IMG/VR virus record: IMGVR_UViG_3300048549_001527
Direction: 5' to 3' (one strand)
From: a virus
Lineage: Duplodnaviria > Caudoviricetes
DNA: 64,000 nt
Shown here: positions 28,979 through 46,278 of the stretch, piece by piece
How the letters are laid out: each line of letters starts with the position of its first letter
How positions within the stretch are numbered: the stretch's first letter is position 1
Position numbers and translations under genes: made by a program
The notes under the pieces: generated by a model
The model's database searches: none
Told to the model about the DNA's origin: nothing
What the model saw: only the letters and a program-made list of their open reading frames with translations

Positions 28979-29329
28979 TTAGTCGTCGCTACTTCCGCCG
29001 CGGCCTTTCAATGCATCAGCACCAAAGAAGGCTGAAACTAAGACTGCAATTGAAGCAAAATATGTTGGGGCAATATCTGCAATTAATTGTGCAGCAGTAT
29101 CTAATCCTAACCAGGATGTTAACATTATCCCAATTGGATAAAGTAAAAGACCGAATAGAGCAAACCACGCCATTTTACGTATGGCATCGCGTTGTGCATC
29201 GGCATCTTCCATTTCTAGCATTTTACGCTGCATATCGAGTTCTTCATTAGTGATCACTCCATCGCCATTATAATCCGCTGCTTTTGGATCATATTTAGAT
29301 GGCGCAGCTGCTTTTTTCTTACCTGCCAT
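28979..29329 (-). CDS. Two-TM membrane protein with EF-hand-like loop (holin-like candidate)
   Basis: DYNGDGVITNEE loop, two hydrophobic helices, late promoter upstream. Confidence 0.6.
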   Translation of the reverse strand: MAGKKKAAAPSKYDPKAADYNGDGVITNEELDMQRKMLEMEDADAQRDAIRKMAWFALFGLLLYPIGIMLTSWLGLDTAAQLIADIAPTYFASIAVLVSAFFGADALKGRGGSSDD

Positions 29330-29378: not shown

Positions 29379-29390
29379 TATTTATAAATA
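29379..29390. promoter_or_regulatory. Overlapping bidirectional late promoters
   Basis: TATTTATAAATA contains TATAAATA on both strands, between divergent genes. Confidence 0.75.
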
Positions 29391-29403
29391 AAGAAAAGGA
29401 GGT

Positions 29404-29607
29404 TTGTTTTTGTATATAACACCCTGTGTATCAGTATGCCAAGTTGACGCTTTTACTGGTGTTTGCATTGGTTGTAAAAGAACGCAAAAGCAAATAAATC
29501 GCTGGAACGATTATACAGATGACCAACGTATGGAAGTAATGAAGTCGTTGGGTTACGGAAAACGTATGAGCAAAGAAGAGCGATTACGAAGGTATGATCG
29601 CGGATAA
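29404..29607 (+). CDS. DUF1289-family Cys-rich protein
   Basis: TPCVSVC...CIGCKRT..QI..W pattern. Confidence 0.8.
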   Translation: MFLYITPCVSVCQVDAFTGVCIGCKRTQKQINRWNDYTDDQRMEVMKSLGYGKRMSKEERLRRYDRG

Positions 29608-29640
29608 ATAAAACGTAGCCTAGTCGAATTATAGGAGGAG

Positions 29641-29829
29641 ATGAAAATGGCATTACAAACAGACGGTACAACTCGCATTACAAATGCTGGCGAGCTAGCA
29701 AATATTTCAGGAACGGACTCAGTTTCTGATGCTGCAATCAATACTGCTATTAAAAACCAAAACAATGTTCTAAGAATTTATAACGCTGCGGGTACTGAAG
29801 TTAAAACTTTATTCTGCGCTCAAAACTAA
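29641..29829 (+). CDS. Short virion fibre-associated protein, copy A
   Basis: Paralog of 30840-31025; Thr/Ala/Asn-rich. Confidence 0.65.
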   Translation: MKMALQTDGTTRITNAGELANISGTDSVSDAAINTAIKNQNNVLRIYNAAGTEVKTLFCAQN

Positions 29830-29841
29830 AAGGTTTTTAAC

Positions 29842-30816
29842 ATGACAGTTAGGGCACCGGCGTATTTAGACACGTCCAATACTTTTATCACATATGTATA
29901 CTCTGCTAATTCCGTTCAAATGGAAAGCGTTTATAATTATGCGGCATATCGTTATACTACTAGTACAGCTGTAGAATTATCTGTTGTTTCATCTGGCGGT
30001 AATCTTGGAAATATGACTGACAGAAGAAAGCAAGCGGGTGATGCTGGATCTAATTCTGGAGCAGGACAAACATTTCCAACAGAAGCAGTTACTGATGATA
30101 TTAGCAATGTTGATACTACAGCTGCAACTATTTCCCAAACCGTTAATGTGACTAGTGAGCCAACATACACCGATGAAAACTACGCGTTTCCTGCATATGT
30201 TACCGCATCAGGTAATTTGCAGAATATGACCAAAGCTGACTTTTATGACACATACATATATCCAACAATTACTAGAATGACTGCTGGCGGATCTGGGGCC
30301 GACGCCGATAGAACTGGTACTTATATTATTAGTACCTTAAGTTCCATCACAGGGGCGCAATTGGTTTCAGCTACTCCTGTATTTACGGATACCCGTGCAA
30401 ATGCTGCAAGCTACACGGCTGCAGGTATTGCAGAAAATAACGACCAGCCTGTTGACATCAACGATTATTATTTACATCAAATTGTTCAAGTGCAACTAGC
30501 ACCAGCTGAAATTCCATTTTATATTAACAGTAGTGGTGAAATGAGACAATATAGTACAACTGCCTGGCGAAATATGTTAAGAGATCATTTAAAATATGTA
30601 GCATCTTCTGTTACTCCTTATAGAATACGCTATAATATTAACGGCGGCGGAAACAACTGTGGTACTGGTATGGCTGATACATATTTGTCTGGTACATCGG
30701 CTCAAGGTTACACTACAAGGTTTGACTCGGCCACAACTACATATTATGCTCAGGAATTTCCGAATGGTACACCAGCAACAAGAATAACATATTATTTAAG
30801 AATAACCGCGGATTGA
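29842..30816 (+). CDS. Virion structural / fibre-like protein, copy A
   Basis: Thr/Ser/Gly-rich, ends YYAQEFPNGTP..TYYLRIT; paralog of 31035-31982. Confidence 0.6.
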   Translation: MTVRAPAYLDTSNTFITYVYSANSVQMESVYNYAAYRYTTSTAVELSVVSSGGNLGNMTDRRKQAGDAGSNSGAGQTFPTEAVTDDISNVDTTAATISQTVNVTSEPTYTDENYAFPAYVTASGNLQNMTKADFYDTYIYPTITRMTAGGSGADADRTGTYIISTLSSITGAQLVSATPVFTDTRANAASYTAAGIAENNDQPVDINDYYLHQIVQVQLAPAEIPFYINSSGEMRQYSTTAWRNMLRDHLKYVASSVTPYRIRYNINGGGNNCGTGMADTYLSGTSAQGYTTRFDSATTTYYAQEFPNGTPATRITYYLRITAD

Positions 30817-30839
30817 TAAATATCTGATAGGAGAAAAAC

Positions 30840-31025
30840 ATGGCAATTAAAGTAGGAACTGACACGGTTATCACCGACCTTAAAGCGCTCAACGGTATAA
30901 CTGGAACAGATGATACAACACAAACAGCAATTAATAATGCAATAGTAGCTGTTGATAATAAGCTCGTTATTAAAGATGCAACAGGTACGGCTGTAAAAAC
31001 AATTTATGGCGGACAATCCGCGTAA
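30840..31025 (+). CDS. Short virion fibre-associated protein, copy B
   Basis: Aligns to 29641-29829 (I.GTD....AIN.AI....N.L.I..A.GT.VKT). Confidence 0.65.
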   Translation: MAIKVGTDTVITDLKALNGITGTDDTTQTAINNAIVAVDNKLVIKDATGTAVKTIYGGQSA

Positions 31026-31034
31026 GGAAAAATC

Positions 31035-31982
31035 ATGGCGGCTAGATCACCATTATATTACAGTGGCGGAGAAATATTAACCGCGACTAATCTTGACACA
31101 GTCGTGGATCAAGTTGTGCGAGCATATGGCCAAAACCCAGGTGTTACGCTTACAGTTGTTTCATCAGGCGGCGATGCAAAATTTGAAATGACTGATACGA
31201 GATACAAAGCAGGCGCGGTTTCAGTCGGCGATGGAGCATATCTTCCAGCAGGACAAACACCTGATATTGAGGCTATAGAAACAACCGCTTCAAATATTAC
31301 AGAAACCGCCGCTTCAGTTACCCAACCCGCTGCTTCTTCTAATCCAAGATCGTTTCCTGTGTATTATAATAATGCCGGCGAAATACAAGCTATGACTGAA
31401 ACTGATTTTATTGATACGTTCATTAAGCCTGCCTTGGACGAAATTGTTGCAAATAATAGTGCAGGCGAATATTTCGTTTCAACTTTGTCTACTATTACCG
31501 GTGCAACAAGAGTTTCAGCTACTCCAATATTTGTTGATACTCGTGCTGATGAAACTTTATATGATGATGTTGGTATTACAGGCGAGACTTTAGATCAGCC
31601 TGAAACAGTAAATTCATATTACTTATTTCAAAGAGATGCAGGTGACACTCAATATGGAGAAACAGGTTGGGTAGATCTTATGTATATTGACACAGATGGT
31701 AGCTTAAGAGTATATAGCGACTCTGATATTTCTGCATTATTTGGTGATTATGTTAGGTATGCGGCTTCAAATACAGTAGGCGCTAGACTTTCTTATAGTA
31801 TTAATGGATCAGGTACAACAAAAGGTACTGGCATGATTGATACCGTTTTGGATGGAACTTCGGCAGAAGGTTATACAGAGGGTGACGTTGATCCAGATAC
31901 AAATTACTACTATGCTCAGGAATTTCCAAACGGCGAGCCTACAGCTTTAACTACATATTATTTAAAACTTACAACATACTAA
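31035..31982 (+). CDS. Virion structural / fibre-like protein, copy B
   Basis: Shares VVSSGG, MTD.R..AG, VSATP.F.DTRA, YYAQEFPNG with copy A. Confidence 0.6.
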   Translation: MAARSPLYYSGGEILTATNLDTVVDQVVRAYGQNPGVTLTVVSSGGDAKFEMTDTRYKAGAVSVGDGAYLPAGQTPDIEAIETTASNITETAASVTQPAASSNPRSFPVYYNNAGEIQAMTETDFIDTFIKPALDEIVANNSAGEYFVSTLSTITGATRVSATPIFVDTRADETLYDDVGITGETLDQPETVNSYYLFQRDAGDTQYGETGWVDLMYIDTDGSLRVYSDSDISALFGDYVRYAASNTVGARLSYSINGSGTTKGTGMIDTVLDGTSAEGYTEGDVDPDTNYYYAQEFPNGEPTALTTYYLKLTTY

Positions 31983-31996
31983 AAGGTGATTATACA

Positions 31997-32662
31997 ATGG
32001 CAATTTTTTCAGGCCGCATTGAAGATGCGCACTACATTAACGAAAAATACGATACAATAGAAATACTCTTTAAATCCGACGATCCTGAAGACACTAAACT
32101 TTATAAACATATTATTGAAGCAGATCCTAAATCTAAGGATTTTCAAGAATTACAAGCTGATGGTTGGGGTGATAAAGAATTATTAGATGCAACCGCAGAA
32201 TTTAAAAGACAACACGCAGCTACTTTCAATAATGCAGTTCAACAAAGAGCGAGCGCAATTGCTCGTGAAATGATTGGTTTAAACAATCTTAAAAGAGAAC
32301 GAGATACGTTAGAAAAAGAACGAGATAAAGTTAAAAACGATATTGAGCGACACCACGGCTGGCTTGAAGAAAAAAGAACCCTTATCAAAAAGAGTGATGA
32401 AAAGATTGACGAGCAGCAGGAAGAGTTAGCATACACTGAAAGCAAAATTAAAAAAACAGAGTTTCATGTTGATAATGCCTTACTTGAAATTGTTATGAAT
32501 CATAACGAACAAGGCGACGAACTATTTAAATTCAAACTTTGGGCTTTGGAGCAAGAATTTGTAAAATCAGCTCCAAAGGAAGTTAAATCAAAGATCCGTA
32601 GAGTAAAACGTATTACACAAGGAATTGCAATATTAGACGAGTTGATTGAGACAAACGAATAA
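31997..32662 (+). CDS. Hypothetical coiled-coil protein
   Basis: 221 aa, charged heptads. Confidence 0.75.
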   Translation: MAIFSGRIEDAHYINEKYDTIEILFKSDDPEDTKLYKHIIEADPKSKDFQELQADGWGDKELLDATAEFKRQHAATFNNAVQQRASAIAREMIGLNNLKRERDTLEKERDKVKNDIERHHGWLEEKRTLIKKSDEKIDEQQEELAYTESKIKKTEFHVDNALLEIVMNHNEQGDELFKFKLWALEQEFVKSAPKEVKSKIRRVKRITQGIAILDELIETNE

Positions 32663-33861
32663 TGAAATGCATGGTTCCTGAAACGGGCATTACAATTAAT
32701 CCAATAGGCGAAATGGTTTTATGCTGTGCCGGTGATAATGTTGCGGTTTCTCACATTAAAGATATTGATAACTTATCAGACTTTTTTAATGGTCCAATAT
32801 ATGATAAGTTAAGAAAAGATTTCAAAGAACAAAACTTTCCAAAACAATGTGATGTATGCTGGCGTCATTATAACGCAGGTCGTATTGCGCGATTTGATTC
32901 CTATAATCGTTTTAATTTTCCAACATATGAAGAAGATCTTGCGTCTGACGTAATACCAATTCGTTTTCTTGAAATTACAACAAGTAATATCTGTAACCAA
33001 ATGTGCGTTACTTGCTCAGGTAAGTATTCTTCAAAGTGGGCGCCATACGAACAGATGGCAGTTGATTATGGTTTAGATTGGAGAAACGAAAACCATAAAT
33101 TCCATACTGAAACATATAAGATGACAACGGCTGATGTTGACAAAGTACTTGAAATTGTTCCTGGGTTGCAACACTTAACTATTAAAGGTGGCGAACCTTT
33201 TGCAGATCAGAACAATATAAAAATATTAAGAAAGCTTGCAGACACAAATCCAAATTGCCGCGTTGAGATTTGTACTAATATGCAATTAGTAACAAACACA
33301 GTCATTGAATTATTACATCGCATTAATGAGGTTCATATACAAGCAAGTATAGACGGTGTTGGAGAAATATACGATTGGATTCGTGGTGGTAATTTTGCTA
33401 AGACCGCTAATAATATTAAAAGATATCACGCGCATTCAGGTCGCAAAGTGGTAATCGTATCAACCGTTTCAGTATATAATTGGATGCACTTACCTGAACT
33501 TATTGATTATTGGAGAGACGTAGATGGTGTTGATAGAATTAGTATGGCAAATATGGTAACGTTTCCAAAGTATTGCTCTCCTTTATATTTGTATAATCAT
33601 CATATTGAAGAAGGCTTAAACAAATTCTTTGAATATTTGGACAGTAAATATACAAAATCAAATGATTCTTTATATCATAGTGATAAGCTATTGGTAAGCG
33701 GTATTAACAATATGCTTAGTGTTAAGCCAGATTTTGAGGCAGATGAAAAACCAAGGTGGCAGGAACGCATGGTAAAGTGGATTGACTATTGTCATGTGGC
33801 GCGAGAAAATAACGAAGACATTTGGGAATTGGCTCCTTACTTACAGGAATATAGAAAATGA
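32662..33861 (+). CDS. Radical SAM enzyme with N-terminal Twitch/SPASM-like domain
   Basis: CNQMCVTC, GGEPF, TN; N-terminal C..LCC..CDVC. Confidence 0.9.
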   Translation: MKCMVPETGITINPIGEMVLCCAGDNVAVSHIKDIDNLSDFFNGPIYDKLRKDFKEQNFPKQCDVCWRHYNAGRIARFDSYNRFNFPTYEEDLASDVIPIRFLEITTSNICNQMCVTCSGKYSSKWAPYEQMAVDYGLDWRNENHKFHTETYKMTTADVDKVLEIVPGLQHLTIKGGEPFADQNNIKILRKLADTNPNCRVEICTNMQLVTNTVIELLHRINEVHIQASIDGVGEIYDWIRGGNFAKTANNIKRYHAHSGRKVVIVSTVSVYNWMHLPELIDYWRDVDGVDRISMANMVTFPKYCSPLYLYNHHIEEGLNKFFEYLDSKYTKSNDSLYHSDKLLVSGINNMLSVKPDFEADEKPRWQERMVKWIDYCHVARENNEDIWELAPYLQEYRK

Positions 33862-35024
33862 AATACGTAGATGTTGTAAATAAGTATAGATCTGATAACT
33901 TTCCAGATATGTATAAGCCTATAACTTGCTGGTCTCCATTTCAAGCTATGCATATTAATAAAAAAGGGGATGTTCGATCGTGTCCTTTTCAAATGAAAAA
34001 AGGAAGTGATAGATATTTTACTCGTGAAGACGGAACGACATACAGAGGTGAAAATATCGCAATTGAAACTTGGTCACCTGAAAAAAGCTTGCTTGATATA
34101 TGGAATGGCAAACCTTTTGAAGCTATGAGATTAGAATCTATGGAAGGTAGCCTACATGATTTTTGTCTTTATTGTATAAACCAATGTAAACAAGATAAGC
34201 CTCCTAGTAGCTTAGATTTTGATTGGGTTGGCGGCGAAAGAAGTATTTCTCACGAATATCCACGAGAAATAGAATTAGAACTTTCAAATAGTTGCAATTA
34301 TCATTGTGCATTTTGCAGTCCTTTTCATTCATCTCAACATATGGAAGCAATGGGATTACAGGATGATCCAAGATTTAAAAGCGTTTTTGACGATACAGAA
34401 ATTAAAGAAGCTTTTATTGAAGATTTAAGAAGTATTATTCATAACATTTATAGGCTTAACTTTACAGGTGGCGAGCCATTTGCACAAAGGGTTGTATATG
34501 ATATTCTTAAAATGATTGATGAAGAACAGCCTGAAAATTTAGGCGTTCATTTTACAACTAATGGTAGTATTATGAATGGCGCCGTTCGCAAAATAGCTCA
34601 AAGAAATAATGTAAGATTTACAGTATCATTAGACTCATTAGATCCAGAAACATATCCTCAATTAAGAATTAACGGTAATTTAGAAAACGTTTTAAATAAT
34701 ATCGAAACACTTAGACAAACCCAAGCCTACATCGGTTGTTCCTTTGTGATAAGTAAGATGAACGTTAGGGAATTGCCTAATATTATTTCATGGTGTAACG
34801 AAAAACAAATTGAATTTTCTTATCATCTTATTGTTCCGATGATGAACGAAAAAAAGTTTAGAGATATTGTTTATCCTCAATCGGTTGAACTTCAATCAAA
34901 AGAATATATACAAGAACTTAAAAGTTATTTAGGAAATGCTGAAATTTATATGAATAAGAAAAATGATTACTTGTCGAATAAAAACTTGACTATGTTTAAA
35001 CAATATATTGAAAGATTAAAATGA
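33858..35024 (+). CDS. Radical SAM enzyme with N-terminal Twitch/SPASM-like domain
   Basis: CNYHCAFC, GGEPF, TTNG, VSLDS; N-terminal CWSPF..SCP..CLYC. Confidence 0.9.
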   Translation: MKYVDVVNKYRSDNFPDMYKPITCWSPFQAMHINKKGDVRSCPFQMKKGSDRYFTREDGTTYRGENIAIETWSPEKSLLDIWNGKPFEAMRLESMEGSLHDFCLYCINQCKQDKPPSSLDFDWVGGERSISHEYPREIELELSNSCNYHCAFCSPFHSSQHMEAMGLQDDPRFKSVFDDTEIKEAFIEDLRSIIHNIYRLNFTGGEPFAQRVVYDILKMIDEEQPENLGVHFTTNGSIMNGAVRKIAQRNNVRFTVSLDSLDPETYPQLRINGNLENVLNNIETLRQTQAYIGCSFVISKMNVRELPNIISWCNEKQIEFSYHLIVPMMNEKKFRDIVYPQSVELQSKEYIQELKSYLGNAEIYMNKKNDYLSNKNLTMFKQYIERLK

Positions 35025-36121
35025 TTAAAAATTGGGATAAGTTTCAGGCGAGACGAAGAATACCTGAAGAACATAAAATGATTGGTTGTTATGCTGCATT
35101 CAATCATATGAGAATTTCAAAAGACGCTTCAGTGCATCCGTGTTGTTTTAATAACAAAAGACATAATTGGTTGCATGACGGTAGTTTAAAGGAATATTGG
35201 TTTAATGGATTAAACGTAGAATACCAAGATGCATTTTTAAATCAAGAACTACATGAAGGATGTCAAATTTGTTTGCAGAGAATTGAAGCAGACTCTCATC
35301 CTGCCATTGTTGAATATGATTACAATATGGGAGATGATAGATTAGAATACGCAATGAATTCTGGTAATTATCCTAAAATTATTGAATTTGAAATATCAGA
35401 TTTGTGCAATTTAGAATGTGAGATGTGCCATGCAGGATTATCATCAAAATTGAGAATGGGAAGAGATAAGCATTTAGTTTCTAAACATCCATACTATCGC
35501 CAAACAAATGAGTTTGATAAAGAAGAAAATATGAATGAGTTAATTGAGCAACTAAAAGAATTTATCCCTCATCTTGAAGAAATTAGATTTGTTGGTGGAG
35601 AGCCTTTCGCCCATAAAGGTATGTTTAAATTAGCAAAAGTTATTTCAGAAATTAACCCATCTGTTGTATTAAGGGTTTGTACTAATGGCACAATATTCAA
35701 TAAGCAAGTAAAAAGCATATGTGAAAATAATAATTTAAAAGTAACTATCTCTTGTGATACCGTTATAGAAGAAGAATATAAGCAAATTAGAATTGGCGCA
35801 AACTACAAAAATACATATGATAATATTCAAAAATTTAAAGAAGCAATTGGTACTGAAAATGTAACAATTAACGCGACATTTATGTCAGTAAATGCCGAAA
35901 ATATGGATAAATTTTTTGAGTATGCTATTGAAAATGGTTTTAATACATTTATTAATGTCTATGTTAGAGAATGGAGAGAGCATACAAAGGATTGGAGAAT
36001 TGAAACCATGTCCGATGAGGTTAAACGATCTGCATTAAATAAAATGAAAGAACTTTTAAATAAAACCAACAAGTCTAATCACGTGGCTGAAATTAATAAA
36101 GTTATAGGATTGTTGAGTTGA
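35021..36121 (+). CDS. Radical SAM enzyme with N-terminal Twitch/SPASM-like domain
   Basis: CNLECEMC, GGEPF, TNG; N-terminal CYAAF..PCC..CQIC. Confidence 0.9.
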   Translation: MIKNWDKFQARRRIPEEHKMIGCYAAFNHMRISKDASVHPCCFNNKRHNWLHDGSLKEYWFNGLNVEYQDAFLNQELHEGCQICLQRIEADSHPAIVEYDYNMGDDRLEYAMNSGNYPKIIEFEISDLCNLECEMCHAGLSSKLRMGRDKHLVSKHPYYRQTNEFDKEENMNELIEQLKEFIPHLEEIRFVGGEPFAHKGMFKLAKVISEINPSVVLRVCTNGTIFNKQVKSICENNNLKVTISCDTVIEEEYKQIRIGANYKNTYDNIQKFKEAIGTENVTINATFMSVNAENMDKFFEYAIENGFNTFINVYVREWREHTKDWRIETMSDEVKRSALNKMKELLNKTNKSNHVAEINKVIGLLS

Positions 36122-37185
36122 AACCGTGCTATTGGCCTGATCATGGAGCTGTTATAGATTCGCAGGGGTTTATCAAGCCGTGTTGCATGATGGGCGGTTA
36201 TGAGATGTTAAATAATAATCACAACGTTTTAGATGGTATACATATAGACCATACTGATTCTATAAATGAATATTTTTATAGTGATTTTTTAATCTATTTA
36301 AGAAAAAGTTTACAAGAAAACAACATTGAAGGCACACCAGAATGCCATAATTGTAAGCTGCAAATAGAAAATAACGTAGGTCGGCATTTTCAGCAATCAT
36401 ACGAGTATTCAGACTATGCGATGGATGGATCTATTAAATTTTTAGAAATTACCACGAGTAATATATGCAATCAAACATGCGTTACGTGTAACAGCTATTT
36501 TAGTTCTAAGTGGGAAACAATAGAACAACTGTTTAATGATAAATTTCAAAAACGAAAACAGTTTAATTTGTCCAATGATGCAATGGATAAAATTATTAAA
36601 GTTTTACCTGAGCTAAAAGTTCTTAATATAAAAGGTGGAGAACCTTTCGCTGATATTAGAAACGCAAAAATTTTGGAAAAATTAGTAGAAGTAAATCCAG
36701 ATTGCCAGGTTTGGATATTATCAAACGCGTCTATTATTTCTAATAGATTTATAAAAGTACTAAAAAGAATTAAAAACTTAAGCTTAACTGCTAGCTTAGA
36801 TCATATTGGTAAAAAATATGAGTGGATACGAAGTACTCCTTTTGACCAGACTCTATATACACTTAAAAGAATATATGAAGAAACTGGTATCAGATTTAGT
36901 GTTTCGCCTACAATATCATATTTTAATATATTAGATATGGAAGAAATTAAAAGCTTTTACGAAGATTTTGAGTATACAAAATGGCATATTCAAAATTATA
37001 ATGATTACAATTTTGTTCGTTGGCCAGCTGAGATGGATTGTCTTAATACGAGAACTCAAGAAGAGTTAGACTCTATAGATCGCGGACTAATATCTAAGTT
37101 TAATCCTCATAAATATAACGAGTTACAAAATAAAATTAATATTATGAATGAAATAAGAGGATTTGATTGGTCAGATGAATTATAA
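36118..37185 (+). CDS. Radical SAM enzyme with N-terminal Twitch/SPASM-like domain
   Basis: CNQTCVTC, GGEPF; N-terminal CYWP..PCC..CHNC. Confidence 0.9.
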   Translation: MKPCYWPDHGAVIDSQGFIKPCCMMGGYEMLNNNHNVLDGIHIDHTDSINEYFYSDFLIYLRKSLQENNIEGTPECHNCKLQIENNVGRHFQQSYEYSDYAMDGSIKFLEITTSNICNQTCVTCNSYFSSKWETIEQLFNDKFQKRKQFNLSNDAMDKIIKVLPELKVLNIKGGEPFADIRNAKILEKLVEVNPDCQVWILSNASIISNRFIKVLKRIKNLSLTASLDHIGKKYEWIRSTPFDQTLYTLKRIYEETGIRFSVSPTISYFNILDMEEIKSFYEDFEYTKWHIQNYNDYNFVRWPAEMDCLNTRTQEELDSIDRGLISKFNPHKYNELQNKINIMNEIRGFDWSDEL

Positions 37186-38359
37186 GAGATGGCAATGGCA
37201 TAACTTAACGTTTGACGTTGAACTTACTACGCACTGTAATCTCAAGTGCCCACAGTGTTCAAGGACAGATCATAGGAATAATTTAAATAAGATGGAGTGG
37301 TTACCGCTTACGTCTGTTAGCCTAAAAGATTTCATGAAATGGTTTCCTCCGACTATTATACAATCAATTGGGTGTATTCATTTTTCAGGAACTTACGGCG
37401 ATCCTGGGATGTGTAAAGATCTAATGGATATTGTTAAGTATCTTGCGTTAGAAGGTACTTGCCGTATTTCTATAAATACAAATGGATCCATGAGAGATGA
37501 AGAGTTTTGGTTTAACCTTGCGGCTTGGGGTGGTTCAAGACTTCAACTTATATTTGATGTTGACGGTATTGACCAAGAAATGCATAGCTTTTATCGCCGA
37601 GGATCCGATCTCAATAAAGTATTAGATGCAATAGAAGTAACCTCAGGTACTGATGCAAATATCAAAGTACTTACTGTTTTATTTAAACACAATCAAGACT
37701 ATCTTGAAGATATTCGTAATATGGTTAACGAACGCGTACAAAAGCCAATTAAGTTTGATGAAGTAGAAGGAAATAACTTTCAGCATACTGGATCTAAATA
37801 TGAATTTTTAAACGAGAATGGCGAGACTGAAATTCTTGAGCAGGTTACACGACAAGATAGAGAACAAGGATTAGAACGTAGAACTCGTCGAGTACGTGAT
37901 CATCGCCATAAAGATATTGTTACCAATATTAAATCAAATGAATCTAATTTATTACCTATTGAGGATAAACCTATTATACCACAGGTAGTTGAGCCTGTCA
38001 AACAAAAAACGAAAGAATACGAAATAAATTGTTTAGCTGTTGGCGAGAATAATATCAAAGTACAAGCAAGTGGTATGGTATCGCCATGCTGTTATCTTTC
38101 AACATCGTTAGAGCGAGCTGCTATCTACCAAAAAGATCAAGACACTCAATATATGATTACGTCAACTGGCAAACATGCTGATCCCAAACATCCATTAATG
38201 CAAGAATATGTTGACAATTGGAAAGATTTTAATTTACATTATAGTAGTATCTATGATATAATGGAATCAACGTGGTTTAAAGAAAAGCTTCCTGAGCATT
38301 GGGAAACTCCTGAAACGGCTTGCCACGCTTGTGTTAAAGTATGCGGAAAATTAAAATGA
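37163..38359 (+). CDS. Radical SAM enzyme with C-terminal SPASM domain
   Basis: CNLKCPQC, GTYGDP, TNGS; C-terminal C..PCCY..CHACVKVC. Confidence 0.9.
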   Translation: MIGQMNYKRWQWHNLTFDVELTTHCNLKCPQCSRTDHRNNLNKMEWLPLTSVSLKDFMKWFPPTIIQSIGCIHFSGTYGDPGMCKDLMDIVKYLALEGTCRISINTNGSMRDEEFWFNLAAWGGSRLQLIFDVDGIDQEMHSFYRRGSDLNKVLDAIEVTSGTDANIKVLTVLFKHNQDYLEDIRNMVNERVQKPIKFDEVEGNNFQHTGSKYEFLNENGETEILEQVTRQDREQGLERRTRRVRDHRHKDIVTNIKSNESNLLPIEDKPIIPQVVEPVKQKTKEYEINCLAVGENNIKVQASGMVSPCCYLSTSLERAAIYQKDQDTQYMITSTGKHADPKHPLMQEYVDNWKDFNLHYSSIYDIMESTWFKEKLPEHWETPETACHACVKVCGKLK

Positions 38360-38964
38360 ATATTATATTTGTAAAGCACGGAGATAAGTACCACGCAGGT
38401 CATGTAAATCGACTTTATTCTCAGCTTGTTCAATATTACCCAAATGCAAAATTTCATTGTTATACAGAATACCCACAAGGTATTGATGAACAAGTAAATA
38501 TCATTTGGTGTTTTAACAAGCCATCATTAAAGTATTGGTGGAACAAGCTTGCGCTGTTCAGTGAAGATCTTCCTGTAGAAGGTAAGTGTTTGTTCTTTGA
38601 TTTGGATATGGATATTAAAAGAGATCCGTCTGAGTTTATTACATGGAAAGGTCTAACAGTCATACGTGATTATTGGAAAGACGATTTGTATATGGCTCCG
38701 CATGCTTATGATGTACACATAAATAGTTCTGTAATTACATGGACTGCTGGTGAACAGCGCGATGTATGGGAACACTTTTTAGAAAATAAAGATTACTTTA
38801 TGCGTAAGTATAAAGGTATAGACAGATTTATTGTTCACGAAAAGGTACCACACAATACGTTTGAACAAGGCTTAGTGAATAGTGTTAAATCACCTGCAAC
38901 ATGGGATGCGCCAATTGATATGTATAATGGATTGAAATATGAGTTACCGCGAAAATCTTTATAA
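38356..38964 (+). CDS. GT-A glycosyltransferase-like protein
   Basis: VKHGDKY..HVNRL, WWNKL.LF, FFDLD (DxD), INSSV. Confidence 0.7.
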   Translation: MNIIFVKHGDKYHAGHVNRLYSQLVQYYPNAKFHCYTEYPQGIDEQVNIIWCFNKPSLKYWWNKLALFSEDLPVEGKCLFFDLDMDIKRDPSEFITWKGLTVIRDYWKDDLYMAPHAYDVHINSSVITWTAGEQRDVWEHFLENKDYFMRKYKGIDRFIVHEKVPHNTFEQGLVNSVKSPATWDAPIDMYNGLKYELPRKSL

Positions 38965-39607
38965 AAATGCGCTTAAAATAATAGAGCAAATATACCAACA
39001 AAGTAAATACGATCCTTCCGTGGATCTTTATAGAAGCTTTGATGTTATGAATGCTGTTAACGATCCACAACTTGATAGTAAAGAATGGCTTGTTAATAAT
39101 CTCCTCCCATTCATTAATAAAAAAAGATTTTGGCCTGATACGAATGGCGAACTAAAAGACATTTTAGTTATGGGCAGCTGGTATAGTGTTATTGGGATGA
39201 TATTAAAAAATCATATAAGTCCTGATGTTAAAATACATAATGTAGATATGGATCCATTGTGTGAAGAATATTCCCATAAACTAATAAATGGTGATTACGA
39301 AAACATATGGCCTATTACTGACGACGCAATGGAATACTATTTTGAAAGAACAGATCATTTTCAGCTCATTATCAATACAAGTTGCGAGCATATGGAAAAG
39401 GATGATATTCAATTGGTATTAAGACAAAAGCCTTATAATACCTTAATATGTTTTCAAAGCAATAACTATCATGCAGAACCTGAACATATTAATACTCACG
39501 ACAGCTTAGATTCGTTTGTAAAAGAGTTAAATTTAAATGCAGTATATTGGAAAGGCGAACTAAAACCGTCTAAAGATTACACAAGATATATGGTAATTGG
39601 AAAATGA
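38939..39607 (+). CDS. SAM-dependent methyltransferase-like protein
   Basis: LVMGSWY, VDMDP, INTSCEHM, QSNNY. Confidence 0.65.
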   Translation: MSYRENLYKNALKIIEQIYQQSKYDPSVDLYRSFDVMNAVNDPQLDSKEWLVNNLLPFINKKRFWPDTNGELKDILVMGSWYSVIGMILKNHISPDVKIHNVDMDPLCEEYSHKLINGDYENIWPITDDAMEYYFERTDHFQLIINTSCEHMEKDDIQLVLRQKPYNTLICFQSNNYHAEPEHINTHDSLDSFVKELNLNAVYWKGELKPSKDYTRYMVIGK

Positions 39608-41349
39608 AAAGAGTAATTTTTAGTTGTTACGATGAAATTGACGATATGGTCCATGACGAGGAACGTCATTGGATTTTTATGGCAAACGAACAGTCAGTAG
39701 AAGAATACTTTGATAGATTAGTTGAAAACAAAAAAGAGTATTGCGAAAAGATCGGTGTTGATTGGATTTTTTATCGCAACGAAATAAAAGACTTTGACGT
39801 TAAAGATGAAATGCAATTTACAAAGGTCAACTTATATAAACACCACTTGTTTGCTAAACTTGCAGAAGAATACGATGAAGTTATGTATGTTGATATGGAT
39901 GTGGTATTTAATACAGACCTAAATGTATTTGATGAATTGGATTTATCAAAAGGTATTGCAGTTAAAGATATGGATAATGAAATTCAATCAAAAGAAGTTA
40001 ATGAAGTTTTATATTCTTCTGTTGGTATGCGAAATCCGACTCTTAAATACCATATTACAAAAGACCTTTTAGATGGCGGAGATAATCACGTCATAAACAC
40101 TGGCATTATGATTGGTAAAAGCAAGCATATTAAACAAATTAAATATGTTGAAAGAATGCAAGAAGCTTACTCCAAAATACAAGAGATTAGACTTTACGAA
40201 CCCGAAGATCCTGATAATAAAGACGATAGAAATTTAGCATACTTAAGAATAAACTATTATGCTAACAACGAGTCTATCTTTTCGTATATCCTTGAAAAAT
40301 ACAAAGTACCGTATCAAATCATGGATGATAAGTGGCATTGGATTGTAGATCACAGACCTAACGATAGTAAAATAGAAGATGTAAATATAATTCATTTTAT
40401 CAATAAAAAATTTAATGCATTCTTTAACGATAAAACGACTGCTATATATTCAATACATATAGATATTCCTGATGATAAACTCGATGACCCTGTTGGTCCT
40501 GACGACGATAAAGTAAATAAAAGTAAAAGAACTAAGGATCGTCTTGGAAAATATAAAGATAGGTTAATTGAAAACCATAAGTGGTATGCAAAAGAAACAG
40601 GTTCCGAATATATTCATTTTGGGCGTGATGAACAATACGAAGAATTTTTTAATAGATTTCCTGATCTTTCAGAATACGATGTGGTTAATTTGTATAAGGT
40701 TTGGTTACTTGATAAATTAACACACGAATATGATTTAGTTTTGTATGTTGATCTTGACGTTTATTTTGCAAAACCATATAATATTTTTAATTATGTACCT
40801 GCTAGTACAACTTTTTGTTGTCAGGTTCAAACAGCAAGAAACGCAGGCGTTCGTAAAACAAGTAATGAATATTATAAATGGTATAACTTTGATTTTAGGA
40901 GTCCGCATAGTAAATTTTGGAACGCCCACGCTATGCTTGAAGAAGAAGGCTATGAACCTGACCAATACATTTTTAATACCGGTATCATGGCGGCCAGTCG
41001 TGCTGTTATGGAACAAATAGATTACTTCAGCGATATTGATGATGTTATTGAATTGATGAAAGATTTAAAGGAAGACGAGTTTTCAATGTATCTTCCTCAA
41101 ATTCGCTCCGCGTTTGGTTATGATAATGAAACTATTATGGCATATAAAACTAAAAAGAATAATGTTAAGCTATATCCATTACCAAAACGTTGGCACCACA
41201 AACATTTATATAGAAACCTAAAATCGTTTACATATGATACTAAAGAGCATGGAATGTCAAAGCGTGAATTGCAAACAGAAATAGCAGTTGAAGATATCGC
41301 AATGATCCACCTTATATCGAAAAATTTTGAATTAGTGTTTGATAAATAA
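39604..41349 (+). CDS. Tandem two-domain nucleotide-diphospho-sugar transferase
   Basis: Two repeats, each with NLYK, YVDxDV, NTGIM and NE.I motifs. Confidence 0.75.
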   Translation: MKRVIFSCYDEIDDMVHDEERHWIFMANEQSVEEYFDRLVENKKEYCEKIGVDWIFYRNEIKDFDVKDEMQFTKVNLYKHHLFAKLAEEYDEVMYVDMDVVFNTDLNVFDELDLSKGIAVKDMDNEIQSKEVNEVLYSSVGMRNPTLKYHITKDLLDGGDNHVINTGIMIGKSKHIKQIKYVERMQEAYSKIQEIRLYEPEDPDNKDDRNLAYLRINYYANNESIFSYILEKYKVPYQIMDDKWHWIVDHRPNDSKIEDVNIIHFINKKFNAFFNDKTTAIYSIHIDIPDDKLDDPVGPDDDKVNKSKRTKDRLGKYKDRLIENHKWYAKETGSEYIHFGRDEQYEEFFNRFPDLSEYDVVNLYKVWLLDKLTHEYDLVLYVDLDVYFAKPYNIFNYVPASTTFCCQVQTARNAGVRKTSNEYYKWYNFDFRSPHSKFWNAHAMLEEEGYEPDQYIFNTGIMAASRAVMEQIDYFSDIDDVIELMKDLKEDEFSMYLPQIRSAFGYDNETIMAYKTKKNNVKLYPLPKRWHHKHLYRNLKSFTYDTKEHGMSKRELQTEIAVEDIAMIHLISKNFELVFDK

Positions 41350-41375
41350 ATAACGTATAAACAATCGATTGGTAT

Positions 41376-41933
41376 TTGATGTCACTTGAAATAATAGATA
41401 TATTACATGATAAAGATACTTTATTTGAAGTAACAGATAGAGCTGCTGAGATTCACCCAGAAAATTTTAAAACCTTTAGAGATAGAGTAAATGGATACAG
41501 TCATTTCTTTGCAGTAAAATTAGAAGGGGAAATTGTTGCTATATCTGGAATATGGCGATACAAATATTGGCCAGATAATTATTTTAGAGTTGGTGATAGA
41601 AGTTTTTATTTTCCGTCCATACGTCAGTACAATCTAGGTAATCCGTACTATAAACCTAATAAAGCCATTAGCAGCCAAATTTTAATGCCAATGCAAACAG
41701 AAATAGTATTAAAACAAGGTGGAATTCCATTTTATAGTATGCTAAATCATATTAATGCTTTAAAAAGATCTGTTAATATTCAAAATGAAGTGGTAAAAAA
41801 CAAGTATAAAGTTATAGATGGTTTATATTGGACTTGTCCATCTAGTCCAAATAAAAATGAAAAAAGTTGTTGGCAAAACATAGCTACGTTAGAAGGGTTT
41901 AAAAATGATTTTAAATTACCAAGACTTTATTAA
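41376..41933 (+). CDS. Hypothetical protein, GNAT-like suspected
   Basis: FFAVKLEGEIVAISGI strand pattern; assignment weak. Confidence 0.5.
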   Translation: MMSLEIIDILHDKDTLFEVTDRAAEIHPENFKTFRDRVNGYSHFFAVKLEGEIVAISGIWRYKYWPDNYFRVGDRSFYFPSIRQYNLGNPYYKPNKAISSQILMPMQTEIVLKQGGIPFYSMLNHINALKRSVNIQNEVVKNKYKVIDGLYWTCPSSPNKNEKSCWQNIATLEGFKNDFKLPRLY

Positions 41934-42420
41934 TCATATAGAATTAAAATATGATAAAGAAGCTTTGATTAAAGAATTCGATTCAACTGAGCTAGTTCCT
42001 TATACACCTAGTCGCCAAACCAAAGGTGAAACGTGGTTTTCTTATCAACCAGATTGGCTGACAAGGACCATTGATGATTATCGTTTCCTTCCTGAAATGG
42101 ATAAGATTAGAGAGTATATTGCTTCTGTCTATGGTTTTGAACCTGTTGGTAAAATGTTTCAGTTATCTGAAAATATTGAAATACCACCACACAAAGATAT
42201 GGGTCATAGAGCTTGTATTAATATAGTTCTTTCTGAAGATCCTGCTCCAGTGTATTATAAAGACTTTGGAGAAATAACTTATACGTGTGCTATATTAAAC
42301 GTTGCACGAAGACATGGTGTTAAATCTGGCCCAAAAAGAAAAATGATTAAATTTCAATTAGGTAATCTATTTTATAGTGAAGCTGTAGGGATATGGAACA
42401 CAAAGCACTCTATCACATAA
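41905..42420 (+). CDS. HxD..H Fe(II) hydroxylase (AspH/JmjC-like)
   Basis: IPPHKD, CINIVL, NVARRHGV. Confidence 0.75.
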   Translation: MILNYQDFINHIELKYDKEALIKEFDSTELVPYTPSRQTKGETWFSYQPDWLTRTIDDYRFLPEMDKIREYIASVYGFEPVGKMFQLSENIEIPPHKDMGHRACINIVLSEDPAPVYYKDFGEITYTCAILNVARRHGVKSGPKRKMIKFQLGNLFYSEAVGIWNTKHSIT

Positions 42421-42872
42421 ACTTTCCAATTTCAAAAGAACTATTACTTAATGAAGCCATGTCTTTTGATGATTATCAACCTTATCATGATGCAAAGAAT
42501 AATCGCTATTTGGATGATTGGTTGCAAAAACATACAAATGAAGGTTTGGCTTGGGACTTAGCACAGAAATATAAAACTGATCTTGATCTTAGTGACATAC
42601 GACCAAGATATTATATTCAGAAAAGTGGCTTTACTCTCCCTTGGCATAAAGATAGAGGAACTGGGTGCAGCTTTAACTTTGTTCTTGATGGAACATCATC
42701 AATTAGTTTTCGAGATGGCGACTTCTATTATAAGTCAGCAATATTAAACACTCAAGTAGAACACGCAGTATTCCAAACAGAAAAAGACACTGACCGAGTG
42801 CTTCTCAAATTCAGTGTCTTTGATTTATCTTTTGATGAAGTTGTAAAGAGATATCAGGTTAAGTATATGTAA
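42393..42872 (+). CDS. HxD..H Fe(II) hydroxylase (AspH/JmjC-like)
   Basis: LPWHKD, SFNFVL, NTQVEHAV, RVLLKFS. Confidence 0.75.
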   Translation: MEHKALYHINFPISKELLLNEAMSFDDYQPYHDAKNNRYLDDWLQKHTNEGLAWDLAQKYKTDLDLSDIRPRYYIQKSGFTLPWHKDRGTGCSFNFVLDGTSSISFRDGDFYYKSAILNTQVEHAVFQTEKDTDRVLLKFSVFDLSFDEVVKRYQVKYM

Positions 42873-43164
42873 TATCTACAGTAAAGCCAGCTTGTTCCCA
42901 AGCAGCTTTAGCAGTATCATAAAATGCTTTTACTTGATCACTATGAACTGCATCATAGGTTCTTGTGACATTAATAGTATTATTATTTGAGAAATCACGA
43001 GACCAACTTTCTGGCTGAAGAGTTTCCCAAATAAATTCCCACATTGCAACATCATCAACTTCAATGGAGTTAATCAAAACTTCAGAAGTTGCGGATATCA
43101 TATCATCCTCTTGTGCATAAGTTTCTGATGATGCAATAATTATTGTCTGTGTTTCTGTTGTCAT
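42859..43164 (-). CDS. Hypothetical acidic protein with its own late promoter
   Basis: 101 aa, AAGGAG RBS, TATAAATA at 43183-43190 (minus). Confidence 0.7.
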   Translation of the reverse strand: MTTETQTIIIASSETYAQEDDMISATSEVLINSIEVDDVAMWEFIWETLQPESWSRDFSNNNTINVTRTYDAVHSDQVKAFYDTAKAAWEQAGFTVDITYT

Positions 43165-45599: not shown

Positions 45600-45622
45600 G
45601 TCGTTTAATTTAGAAAAGTGTT

Positions 45623-46225: not shown

Positions 46226-46278
46226 ATTACGAAACACCTTTTACTTTTGCGACCATACTAAAAAATAATGTATACGTA

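Follow-up and report, generated by a model that had tools for sequence, protein, structure and literature searches.

A predicted late radical SAM and glycosyltransferase-like gene cassette linked to the fibre-tip module of marine T4-like phages, with a possible role in carbohydrate tailoring

Organization of the Locus

The window analysed here, a 64,000-nucleotide stretch of DNA from a tailed phage (IMG/VR record IMGVR_UViG_3300048549_001527), carries five consecutive radical SAM (rSAM) genes on the plus strand, whose open reading frames (ORFs) occupy positions 32662-38359. They lie among the following features.

29383-29390, plus strand: T4-type late promoter motif TATAAATA, read directly, heading the cassette
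29404-29607, plus strand: small Cys-rich DUF1289 protein, 67 aa (Pfam PF06945, E 2.2e-17)
29641-29829, plus strand: s1, 62-aa fibre-tip stub, relatives 25-54% identical
29842-30816, plus strand: F1, globular and beta-prism-like, from a family restricted to viruses
30840-31025, plus strand: s2, 61 aa, s1 paralogue (42% identity)
31035-31982, plus strand: F2, F1 paralogue (38% full-length identity)
31997-32662, plus strand: cc, 221-aa coiled-coil-like protein, directly 5' of R1
32662-33861, plus strand: R1, N-terminal-twitch rSAM enzyme (NF033640, 206 bits; passes the cut-off of 170)
33858-35024, plus strand: R2, N-terminal-twitch rSAM enzyme (NF033640 top match, 145 bits; below 170)
35021-36121, plus strand: R3, N-terminal-twitch rSAM enzyme (NF033640 top match, 164 bits; below 170)
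36118-37185, plus strand: R4, N-terminal-twitch rSAM enzyme, TTG start (NF033640 top match, 155 bits; below 170)
37163-38359, plus strand: R5, rSAM enzyme of usual domain order with a Cys-rich C-terminal tail, TTG start
38341-38964, plus strand: g6, glycosyltransferase-like (phrog_1962 'glycosyltransferase', E 2.1e-10)
38939-39607, plus strand: g7, methyltransferase-like (lead only)
39604-41349, plus strand: g8, two tandem GT8-like glycosyltransferase domains, halves 28% identical
41376-42872, plus strand: three overlapping ORFs of 185, 171 and 159 aa that extend the operon
43237-46237, minus strand: convergent arm with two Asp/Asn-beta-hydroxylase-like proteins, a membrane fatty-acid-desaturase-like protein, a QueC-like PP-loop protein and one further ORF

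The original prediction of five translationally coupled CxxxCxxC enzymes proved correct. Each of R1-R5 matches Pfam Radical_SAM (38-66 bits, cut-off 29.5) and has a single CxxxCxxC motif (residues 111, 146, 129, 117 and 25, respectively), and the genes overlap by 4, 4, 4 and 23 nt from R1/R2 to R4/R5. The cc gene overlaps R1 by 1 nt. As had been remarked, no obvious terminator precedes the rSAM genes: we saw no intergenic terminator-like site on the plus strand across 29400-42900. The array recurs in near-identical form in seawater metagenomes from at least 17 studies, which excludes an assembly artefact.

An N-Terminal Twitch Module in Four of the Enzymes

The top NCBIfam match for R1-R4 is NF033640 ('N_Twi_rSAM'), to which all four align across almost their full length. 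Pfam SPASM is matched at the N-terminus of R1, R2 and R4. The N-terminal cysteines of R1 (C3, C21, C63 and C66) are invariant across 18 diverse homologues, and the rSAM and twitch cysteines are intact across all members. A profile built from these N-terminal sequences aligns with the twitch that BtrN carries at its C-terminus (4m7t/4m7s, E 2e-6); thus, the circular permutation proposed earlier for a Twitch-like Cys cluster in four of the enzymes is real. The fifth had been credited with a C-terminal SPASM domain. R5 indeed carries its core (residues 20-187) ahead of a tail with six cysteines (290, 309, 310, 387, 390 and 394), but its SPASM score of 18.2 bits lies below the cut-off of 21.5, so this label is only loosely valid. 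An R5 orthologue that is 92-94% identical occurs in locus L025. With pairwise identities of 23-31%, R1-R4 are old paralogues.

Membership in NF033640 gives these genes a name but no explanation. Our literature search found no paper reporting a reaction or substrate for any member of the family, which weakens a sugar-tailoring interpretation. Structural comparison likewise counts against it, since peptide- and sugar-acting enzymes rank level among the neighbours of the R1 core (model pLDDT 88.3): SkfB (Z 14.3), BlsE (14.0), SuiB (13.8) and DesII (13.7). In this comparison CteB, SkfB and SuiB rank high for the rSAMs, and tetraether lipid synthase appears among their matches.

The Fibre-Tip Module and Its Late Motif

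The 61-62-aa ORFs had been put forward as candidate RiPP-like substrates, a role that we reject. Long repeat-rich fibre proteins of 216-1308 aa, encoded ahead of F in five related loci (L029, L030, L032, L034 and L035) and in Pelagibacter phage Mosig (Mosig_00098), end in the same C-terminal motif as these ORFs, and some of these proteins belong to phages without any rSAM. The short ORFs are thus recognisable from their sequence as truncated fibre C-termini. The motif is strongly conserved in both s and the fibre proteins.

The description of the F genes as fibre-like is also rejected. F1 yields a confident globular model with a three-fold pseudo-repeat (pLDDT 89.7, pTM 0.84), and across 719 clusters F is nearly always a stand-alone protein of 300-330 aa. 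More than 1400 homologues exist, without a Pfam domain. F1 has only weak structural matches, to C-terminal beta-prism (MABP-like) domains (8b6v, Z 6.5; 2qp2, Z 6.2; 3tow, Z 4.8); this fold reveals no function, which counts against F as an acceptor on the virion. Ser and Thr make up 23% of F1 (21-23% for F1 and F2), and F2 is 41% identical to Mosig_00097. Homologues of cc (24-45% identity) sit between F and the enzymes in relatives; family searches and the protein atlas gave no match for cc itself.

In each of the 16 related loci where the promoter region is included, the motif TATAAATA lies 38-40 nt 5' of the small ORF or just 5' of a DUF1289 gene inserted there. The inserted gene occupies the same place in L019, L020 and L023 and is absent from most relatives. 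Window-wide the motif is not enriched (12 found versus 10.5 expected). A late promoter at 29383 and late expression had both been proposed; the motif is read at that position, and its conservation supports a predicted late timing of the cassette.

A Conserved Cassette with Exchangeable rSAM Genes

More than 25 marine phage contigs share the cassette, and Mosig has it in part; the order is late motif, small fibre-tip stub, F of about 320 aa, coiled-coil protein, zero to five rSAMs, glycosyltransferase-like, methyltransferase-like and double GT8-like genes. The proposed link between the enzymes and the virion-tip module is supported by an F homologue in 22/22 loci found with R1 that hold enough upstream DNA, although these loci (L002-L027) were retrieved using R1 and the related loci are phylogenetically non-independent. 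Both the glycosyltransferase-like and the methyltransferase-like gene are present in all five F-found loci with enough downstream DNA. A comparison with 50,697 deposited phage genomes gave Mosig as the only match for F and likewise for the double GT8 gene. F and the glycosyltransferase genes stay linked behind giant tail proteins (L021, L029, L034 and Mosig) or among replication genes, as in the window, where topoisomerase II and clamp loader genes surround the cassette. Vibrio phage KVP40 carries an N-twitch-like rSAM away from its fibre genes, which counts against a tip-linked cassette.

R1-R4 form four phage orthogroups (support 1.0 each), and the repertoires found are {R1}, {R1,R3}, {R1,R3,R3'}, {R1,R2,R4} and {R1,R2,R3,R5}, with the full five in the window. 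Loci L004 and L008 are closely similar (s 90%, F 78%, cc 84%, R1 95%, g6 90% and g8 87% identity), yet between R1 and g6 the former has R2 and R4 and the latter R3. Conversely, L004 and L020 have the same rSAM set at 67-77% identity, while F is only 32% identical. Hence, otherwise near-identical cassettes exchange their rSAM sets, and the sets show no co-variation with s or F. Cassettes in L029 and L034 have no rSAM at all, which makes the rSAMs add-ons to a glycosyltransferase/methyltransferase core.

These patterns bear on the possibility that the rSAMs modify protein directly, in RiPP-like fashion, by installing cross-links, epimerisations or C-methylations in F, the fibre C-terminal motif or s. 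Peptide maturases are common among SPASM/twitch enzymes and rank high among the structural neighbours, the s/fibre motif is strongly conserved, cc-R1 adjacency is kept in most loci, and the nearby Asp/Asn-beta-hydroxylase-like genes could hydroxylate protein. However, s-type motifs and F persist in L029 and L034 without any rSAM, and the repertoire shifts while s and F remain 78-90% identical but is constant while F falls to 32%. Moreover, Pfam and NCBIfam scans detected no PqqD/RRE domain, s2 has no Cys and s1 one, and the bacterial arrays have polysaccharide neighbours (see below). We therefore consider direct peptide modification, as originally suggested, unlikely.

Downstream and Flanking Genes

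The enzymes had been described as followed by glycosyltransferases and a methyltransferase. Of these genes, g6 is glycosyltransferase-like, with homologues 40-89% identical that adjoin F or rSAMs in relatives, and g8 is a double GT8-like protein with an invariant DxD (D97-x-D99); the methyltransferase-like g7 is a lead only, from atlas viral clusters of which some are named methyltransferase. PF01501 matches 6 of 12 members of the g8 family (best E 8.6e-7), and atlas viral clusters with GT8 include g8 relatives, but the N-terminal half of the window's own g8, at 19.9 bits, stays below the cut-off of 24.3. That the assignments of the window's own g6 and g8 are sub-threshold counts against the sugar reading, as does the lack of a sugar-nucleotide synthesis gene within the cassette itself. 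In favour of the proposed cassette, its plus-strand proteins have no TM segments, and a flippase, polymerase or priming transferase is absent.

The 185-, 171- and 159-aa ORFs have no match in Pfam, NCBIfam or PHROG. An HKD...H pattern read in the two shorter ones suggests a candidate Fe(II) facial triad. The convergent arm, which matches PF05118 (E 4e-7 and 2.7e-6), PF00487 (E 8e-9) and PF06508 (E 7e-10), is tied to the rSAM operon by position only and is not conserved together with the cassette in relatives; its desaturase-like protein has four TM-like segments. In bacteria these hydroxylase and desaturase families modify lipid or protein, a further point against sugar tailoring.

The window also encodes a dCMP hydroxymethylase (49356-50066; matching T4 gp42 structures at E 9e-57), kept near the cassette in close relatives. 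It is conceivable that the enzymes tailor a sugar attached to hydroxymethylcytosine in phage DNA, and phage DNA hypermodification is known to involve both enzyme types, glycosyltransferases as well as rSAMs (PMC5889632). However, no hydroxymethylase homologue was found in Mosig, which has F and g6/g7/g8 homologues, or in KVP40 with its N-twitch-like rSAMs. Furthermore, the cassette is headed by a late motif and bound to fibre-tip genes, whereas DNA-modification genes of T4-type phages are early. This is the least likely explanation that we considered.

Bacterial Relatives

Bacterial N-twitch rSAMs also occur in arrays, with up to nine in one Chitinophagales locus, and they lie within cell-surface polysaccharide clusters. 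Their neighbours include GDSL/SGNH proteins (8), AsnB-type EPS amidotransferases (4; top NCBIfam match 'XrtA/PEP-CTERM system amidotransferase', E 2e-153), sugar epimerases/dehydratases, and GT2, GT1 and DXD glycosyltransferases. A Bdellovibrio cluster (L039) combines UDP-glucose dehydrogenase, an epimerase, an N-twitch rSAM, three more rSAMs, a glycosyltransferase and a g7 homologue (E 7.6e-12). No RiPP hallmark is present among the 25 commonest neighbour families.

In Bdellovibrio a fatty-acid hydroxylase gene lies directly 5' of the N-twitch rSAM, and genes of the FA_hydroxylase, UbiA and GDSL families are found repeatedly beside bacterial members. Together with the desaturase-like gene in the window and the match to tetraether lipid synthase, this could mean that the product of the array is a lipid, a glycolipid or another small molecule, made or edited independently of virion or receptor. 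We find this very unlikely: the rSAMs lack TM segments and are soluble, their immediate conserved phage partners are glycosyltransferase and methyltransferase rather than lipid genes, and the desaturase arm does not travel with the cassette.

A Tentative Model for Sugar Tailoring

We tentatively propose, at somewhat less than even odds, that the five rSAMs belong to a late modular carbohydrate-tailoring cassette that travels with the host-recognition tip module of marine T4-like phages, with the virion as the favoured target. Its core consists of a fibre protein or C-terminal stub, F, the coiled-coil protein, glycosyltransferase-like and methyltransferase-like proteins and GT8-like glycosyltransferase(s), into which zero to five rSAM enzymes are inserted. 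Each N-terminal-twitch enzyme might use SAM cleavage to take a hydrogen atom from a nucleotide sugar or nascent glycan and thereby install one edit. By analogy with BtrN and BlsE, twitch enzymes that act on sugars, this could be an oxidation, an epimerisation, a deoxygenation, a decarboxylation or the formation of a C-C bond. Soluble glycosyltransferases would then transfer the edited product to a cytoplasmic acceptor; our favoured candidate on the progeny virion is F, as a tip protein rich in Ser and Thr, or else the fibre tip. A late assembly line decorating fibres or their glycans had been envisaged; its late motif and tip linkage stand, direct modification of fibre or peptide is not supported, and of the two substrates glycans fit better.

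In this model the cassette would probably decorate the virion, but remodelling of the host envelope is a serious rival, which we judge rather unlikely. Here, the same sugar chemistry would alter a host glycan (LPS core, O-chain or EPS) that is the receptor of the neighbouring tip protein, thereby blocking superinfection or keeping progeny from sticking to debris; receptor-binding and receptor-editing genes would co-travel because they must match. A study of pelagimyophages prefers host O-chain modification for their GT8-rich host recognition cluster, and notes rSAM cassettes (PMC7029224). The polysaccharide context of the bacterial relatives is compatible with such a role, and a tip that binds glycan or membrane would be in keeping with the weak resemblance of F to beta-prism domains. 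GT8 is a family of LPS-core transferases, and the convergent arm has Asp/Asn-beta-hydroxylase-like (LpxO/OlsC family) and desaturase-like proteins of families that modify lipids in bacteria. However, the late promoter motif is conserved, whereas exclusion functions are usually early. Also, the plus-strand operon has no membrane-associated transferase, flippase or lipid-carrier enzyme, TM segments being absent from every plus-strand cassette protein, and the coupling of F to glycosyltransferase genes is tight across genome rearrangements, for which enzyme and substrate is the simpler explanation.

Comparison with Known Systems

R1-R4 share with NF033640 members a four-Cys module placed N-terminal to the CxxxCxxC core and the tendency of bacterial members to form tandem arrays, although R1 alone passes the curated cut-off. 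The rSAM/SPASM RiPP maturases SkfB, SuiB, CteB and PqqE resemble them in combining an rSAM core with an auxiliary Fe-S module and provide top structural matches. In R1-R4, however, that module is N-terminal with Cys for one cluster, no RRE was detected, and the candidate precursors are fibre C-termini that do not co-vary with the rSAM sets.

Two enzymes with carbohydrate-type substrates offer further parallels. BtrN, the butirosin 2-deoxy-scyllo-inosamine dehydrogenase and founding twitch enzyme, has a homologous twitch with a common Cys spacing (C-x17-C ... C-x2-C), and BlsE, a cytosylglucuronate decarboxylase, ranks near the top in the structural comparison of the rSAM core. In both, the twitch is C-terminal rather than N-terminal, core identity is about 17-19%, and neither substrate has a connection with phage biology; peptide maturases rank equally in the structural comparison.

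Virus-encoded virion glycosylation is known for mycobacteriophage capsids and tails, PBCV-1 capsid glycans with the GT-GT-methyltransferase A064R, and mimivirus fibril glycans. We know of no radical SAM enzyme employed in these systems. The cassette would resemble them in soluble viral glycosyltransferases and a methyltransferase that sit beside structural genes and are late.

Finally, a 2020 paper by Zaragoza-Solas et al. (PMC7029224) mentions rSAM cassettes descriptively within the host recognition cluster of pelagimyophages and cyanomyophages. It favours host O-chain modification and contains no description of the late motif, of the fibre-stub ORFs, or of the N-twitch and F families. Mosig, L021, L029 and L034 resemble this arrangement in carrying the cassette behind VrlC-like giant proteins, whereas that of the window lies among replication genes and not between VrlC and gp14.

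Genomic setting and conserved gene order

The window, with a GC content of ~35%, comes from a marine T4-like phage and encodes homologues of a gp47-like nuclease, a helicase, topoisomerase II, a clamp loader and dCMP hydroxymethylase. A megablast of the cassette against deposited phages gave no match, and the window has no near-identical relative on deposit. Searches of viral contigs with R1, the first of five radical SAM (rSAM) genes (R1-R5), and with the 324-aa F1, one of two paralogous proteins (F1 and F2), yielded 34 loci. Pelagibacter phage Mosig was found in deposited genomes, and the window proteins were mapped on Mosig and these loci. The features at the head and centre of the cassette are as follows.

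28979-29329, minus strand: protein of 116 aa that carries an EF-hand-like loop (DYNGDGVITNEELD) plus two TM-like segments
29379-29386, minus strand: second TATAAATA, overlapping the plus-strand motif; the 116-aa protein is read divergently from it
29383-29390, plus strand: late motif TATAAATA, head of the cassette
29404-29607, plus strand: four-Cys mini-protein of the DUF1289 family (PF06945, E 2e-17); its gene comes first after the late motif
32662-38359, plus strand: R1-R5 array, five ORFs with overlaps of 4, 4, 4 and 23 nt
37471-37478, plus strand: further exact TATAAATA within the R5 coding sequence, ~870 nt before g6

The recurring order begins with either a short ORF (s, 60-70 aa) or a long fibre protein, followed by F, a coiled-coil protein (cc), zero to five rSAMs, a GT-like gene (g6, phrog_1962), a methyltransferase-like gene (g7), and g8, a position held by one double or two single GT8-like genes. 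An F homologue is present in 22/22 R1-retrieved loci with sufficient upstream DNA, and g6 and g7 are present in 5/5 F-retrieved loci with sufficient downstream DNA. Two relatives, L029 and L034, carry zero rSAM genes in 10 kb of flank, and the window has the largest rSAM set among the sampled relatives. The constant presence of R1 was dropped as evidence, since L002-L027 had been fished with R1. In Mosig, L021, L029 and L034 the cassette lies behind giant VrlC-like tail proteins, and in the window it sits among the gp47-like, helicase, topoisomerase II and clamp loader genes; it is kept together across both settings.

Among 50,697 deposited phage genomes, Mosig is the only match for F and likewise for g8. 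Mosig, whose host is HTCC1062, is the one carrier of the core cassette in culture; its F homologue is Mosig_00097 and its fibre protein Mosig_00098. The N-terminal half of the window g8 scores 19.9 bits on PF01501 (cut-off 24.3), a model that matches 6 of 12 g8 family members (best E 8.6e-7), and a DxD motif is invariant in the family. Sequence or profile searches of the PDB with g6 and g8 found no match, and an atlas search with cc returned nothing usable (score 0.75). The 116-aa EF-hand-like protein is 59-98% conserved directly beside the cassette in relatives. Among the loci compared, the DUF1289 gene occurs only in the window, L019, L020 and L023; one might speculate that its product assists the rSAM enzymes as a small metal or Fe-S protein.

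A family of N-terminal-twitch radical SAM enzymes

Each of R1-R5 contains one CxxxCxxC motif and scores 37.7-65.5 bits on PF04055 (Radical_SAM), above the gathering score of 29.5, which by the combination of motif and score places all five in the radical SAM superfamily. The motif lies at residues 111-146 in R1-R4, and the N-terminal 70-110 residues of these proteins have the cysteine pattern C-x17-C(C) ... C-x2-C. This four-Cys module (C3, C21, C63, C66 in R1 numbering) is invariant across 18 sequences and stands ahead of the CxxxCxxC core, as in NF033640 (N_Twi_rSAM, "twitch domain-containing radical SAM protein"). The original prediction had described it as a circularly permuted twitch, and this reading proved correct, because a profile of the N-terminal region matches the C-terminal twitch domain of BtrN (E 2e-6). 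With a curated whole-protein cut-off of 170 bits, R1 is the sole formal member of NF033640 (206.3 bits). The same model is the top match of R2 (144.6 bits), R3 (163.9) and R4 (155.2), all under 170, and by these sequence scores the three are best classed as relatives of the family rather than formal members.

R5 is not a member (42.7 bits) and has the ordinary domain order, with a Cys-rich tail at its C-terminus. This tail has six Cys (C-x18-CC ... C-x2-C-x3-C) as against the seven-Cys SPASM motif, and R5 reaches 18.2 bits on the SPASM model PF13186 (21.5 required), with no single stretch passing. Membership of MoaA or another cofactor-synthesis family, a kind of grouping that the original prediction had named as counter-evidence, was rejected: MoaA models gave only 50-79 bits against cut-offs of 231-325.

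R1-R4 represent four old orthogroups (support 1.0 each, 23-31% identity between groups), and R1 and R4 group with Bdellovibrionales sequences (support 0.95). The array recurs almost letter for letter in seawater metagenomes from at least 17 studies. A literature search found no functional study of NF033640 or of N-terminal-twitch enzymes.

Bacterial N-twitch rSAMs, examined in 65 loci, likewise occur in arrays of up to nine genes. Their neighbours encode GDSL/SGNH proteins, EPS-type AsnB amidotransferases, UDP-glucose dehydrogenase, sugar epimerases/dehydratases, and GT1, GT2 and DXD glycosyltransferases; polysaccharide genes are the setting of the bacterial relatives. The largest bacterial array in this analysis, in a Chitinophagales MAG (L037), has nine N-terminal-twitch rSAM genes in 17 kb, interspersed with paralogous GDSL/SGNH proteins. 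In Bdellovibrio sp. HCB2-146 (L039, 4700-16300), UDP-glucose dehydrogenase, an epimerase, a fatty-acid hydroxylase and an N-twitch rSAM are clustered with three other rSAMs, an SDR, a GT and a homologue of the phage g7. Of the cellular loci, this one most resembles the enzyme set of the phage.

Predicted late transcription

A TATAAATA motif upstream of the first gene, as in T4-type late units, is kept in 16/16 loci. It lies 38-40 nt ahead of the s gene in 13 related loci, and directly ahead of the inserted DUF1289 gene in the window and three other loci. Across the window TATAAATA is found 12 times with 10.5 expected, which is not significant, so only its positional conservation counts; the exact copy inside the R5 coding sequence may be due to chance. 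Two relatives carry an insertion between cc and R1.

L004 9234-9956 and L008 9230-9952, minus strand: 240-aa gene between cc and R1

In L008, R1 has a TATAAATA of its own ~30 nt ahead, after the minus-strand gene that splits cc from R1. No convincing intergenic terminator was found in the plus-strand run 29400-42900. Both a late-type motif at 29383 and the lack of an obvious terminator, as originally predicted, are borne out, and the conserved placement of the motif together with the uninterrupted run makes late co-transcription of the cassette a prediction well supported by comparison. No RNA dataset carrying the whole array was listed. Four RNA-labelled runs gave short contigs only, with 90-99% identity to parts of F1/F2, R1 and g8, and these indicate neither transcription nor timing because such libraries can hold DNA.

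F and the small ORFs, a proposed fibre-tip module

The genes upstream of the array had been called fibre-like. A model of F1 from a 30-sequence alignment (pLDDT 89.7, pTM 0.84) is instead globular, with three helix-plus-sheet repeats, and F1 as modelled is not a fibre. A profile search of 1.8 billion proteins with F returned 719 clusters, nearly all of them stand-alone proteins of 300-330 aa. With F1 as the query, Foldseek searches of PDB and BFVD gave nothing under E 0.09, and AlphaFold DB clusters and the ESM atlas gave only uncharacterised members of its own virus-only family. A wide structural search (VIA) had best Z scores of 6.5 and 6.2 to C-terminal beta-prism domains (MABP-like) found in two MACPF proteins; this relationship is not convincing, as Z values up to 6.5 fall in the range common by chance.

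The 61-62-aa ORFs s1 and s2 are genuine genes and are conserved. Their C-terminal motif forms the extreme C-terminus of repeat-rich fibre proteins (216-1308 aa) that directly precede F in L029, L030, L032, L034, L035 and Mosig, and for this reason s is, judging from its homology, a minimal fibre-tip stub. The suggestion that these ORFs are RiPP-like substrates fails, as they are homologous to fibre C-termini and are present also without any rSAM. In T-even phages gp38 is encoded just after the distal end of the fibre. F has a like position, and from this positional analogy we infer that it may be a tip-associated protein. The predicted complex of F1 with s1 scored 0.31 (mark 0.32), a value that counts neither for nor against contact between them.

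Carbohydrate or peptide substrate

Four lines of evidence indicate that the rSAM substrate is probably carbohydrate rather than peptide. The GT/methyltransferase core exists without rSAMs, and the rSAM enzymes are add-ons to it. The rSAM orthogroups are also shuffled between phages: all other cassette genes of L004 and L008 are 78-95% identical, yet one has R2 and R4 and the other R3, while L004 and L020 retain the same set of rSAM orthogroups with F down to 32% identity. A maturase that recognises a peptide should change along with that peptide, and this shuffling therefore counts against a peptide. Direct RiPP-like peptide modification, as first envisaged, finds no backing in a dedicated precursor, the rSAM sets varying independently of s and F, or in a recognition domain, with no PqqD/RRE family at E <= 0.01 in ten operon proteins, a search that divergent RREs could escape. 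The fourth line is the polysaccharide-gene setting of the bacterial relatives. BtrN, the closest solved relative of the twitch module, acts on a sugar-like substrate. Peptide- and sugar-acting rSAMs rank level as structural neighbours of the R1 core, a ranking that is uninformative on substrate.

Target of the product

Assignment of the target is the weakest step. The virion is favoured because the motif is late, because the cassette stays tightly coupled to F through rearrangements, because all plus-strand cassette proteins are soluble, with no export or lipid-carrier enzymes among them, and because F is Ser/Thr-rich. The main rival to this assignment is remodelling of the host envelope, which has already been proposed for pelagimyophage GT8 genes (PMC7029224) and with which two gene types of the convergent minus-strand arm (43237-46237), hydroxylase-like (LpxO/OlsC family) and desaturase-like, are consistent.

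A third possibility is a role in DNA-sugar modification. Three further features of the window are listed here.

13357-15489, plus strand: second sugar set, with a glucosyltransferase (phrog_2835), a TIGR02594-family protein and a GalE-like UDP-glucose 4-epimerase
45623-46237, minus strand: QueC-like gene; a QueC-like protein is also encoded in an island of Vibrio phage KVP40
49356-50066, plus strand: dCMP hydroxymethylase, matching T4 gp42 structures (E 9e-57)

The window's phage probably has hydroxymethylcytosine DNA, judging by this hydroxymethylase. The second sugar set, at a distance from the cassette, may provide or consume nucleotide sugars, whether for DNA or for the cassette. A DNA-sugar role for the cassette is nonetheless unlikely, because Mosig, with F and GT homologues, and Vibrio phage KVP40, with an N-twitch-like rSAM, carry the relevant genes without a dCMP hydroxymethylase homologue; the genes do not depend on an hmC pathway in the same genome. 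The KVP40 island (134-145 kb) comprises the N-twitch-like rSAM, two more rSAMs, the QueC-like protein and a GT1-type protein, and it adjoins NAD salvage genes, away from the fibre genes.

For a virion target, we tentatively suggest, as a possibility that we rate below even chances, that in marine T4-like phages the receptor-binding tip, with F on the fibre C-terminus, would carry a glycan coat, the sugars of which have been edited by N-terminal-twitch rSAM enzymes that are interchangeable. Orthogroup swaps between near-identical phages would then alter virion surface chemistry, much like serotype.

Significance and comparison with known systems

N-terminal-twitch rSAMs are a large catalogued family, with the reaction of none on record. 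Phages mix and match sets of them in a compact soluble cassette with a candidate acceptor and transferases, a small expressible system for working out rSAM chemistry, in which the natural swap of R2 and R4 for R3 between near-identical cassettes is a ready-made comparison. A product located on either the virion tip or the host receptor would be relevant to the way in which abundant ocean phages, SAR11 phages among them, tune host recognition, and would help account for the variability of "host recognition" islands. If the tip-glycan reading is true, the NF033640 family would gain its first function, radical-SAM tailoring of a virion glycan would be seen for the first time, and T4-like marine phages would have their first case of virion glycosylation.

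The family name NF033640 is already on record, and the host-recognition islands of pelagimyophages have been described as containing "radical SAM cassettes" as well as GT8 genes (PMC7029224). New here are an rSAM set larger than in any sampled relative, the conservation of the late motif, the recognition that s is a fibre-tip stub and that F is a globular stand-alone family tied to the GT core, a core cassette free of rSAMs and the natural orthogroup swap. The enzymes differ from BtrN-type twitch sugar dehydrogenases in that the twitch is C-terminal in BtrN and N-terminal in R1-R4. In content, the cassette matches the host recognition cluster of pelagimyophages and cyanomyophages, with its fibre genes, GT8 glycosyltransferases and variable rSAM cassettes (PMC7029224), but that cluster lies between VrlC and gp14, whereas the window cassette lies among replication genes. 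By its gene content, the cassette appears akin to virus-encoded glycan-decoration clusters, with a predicted chemistry.
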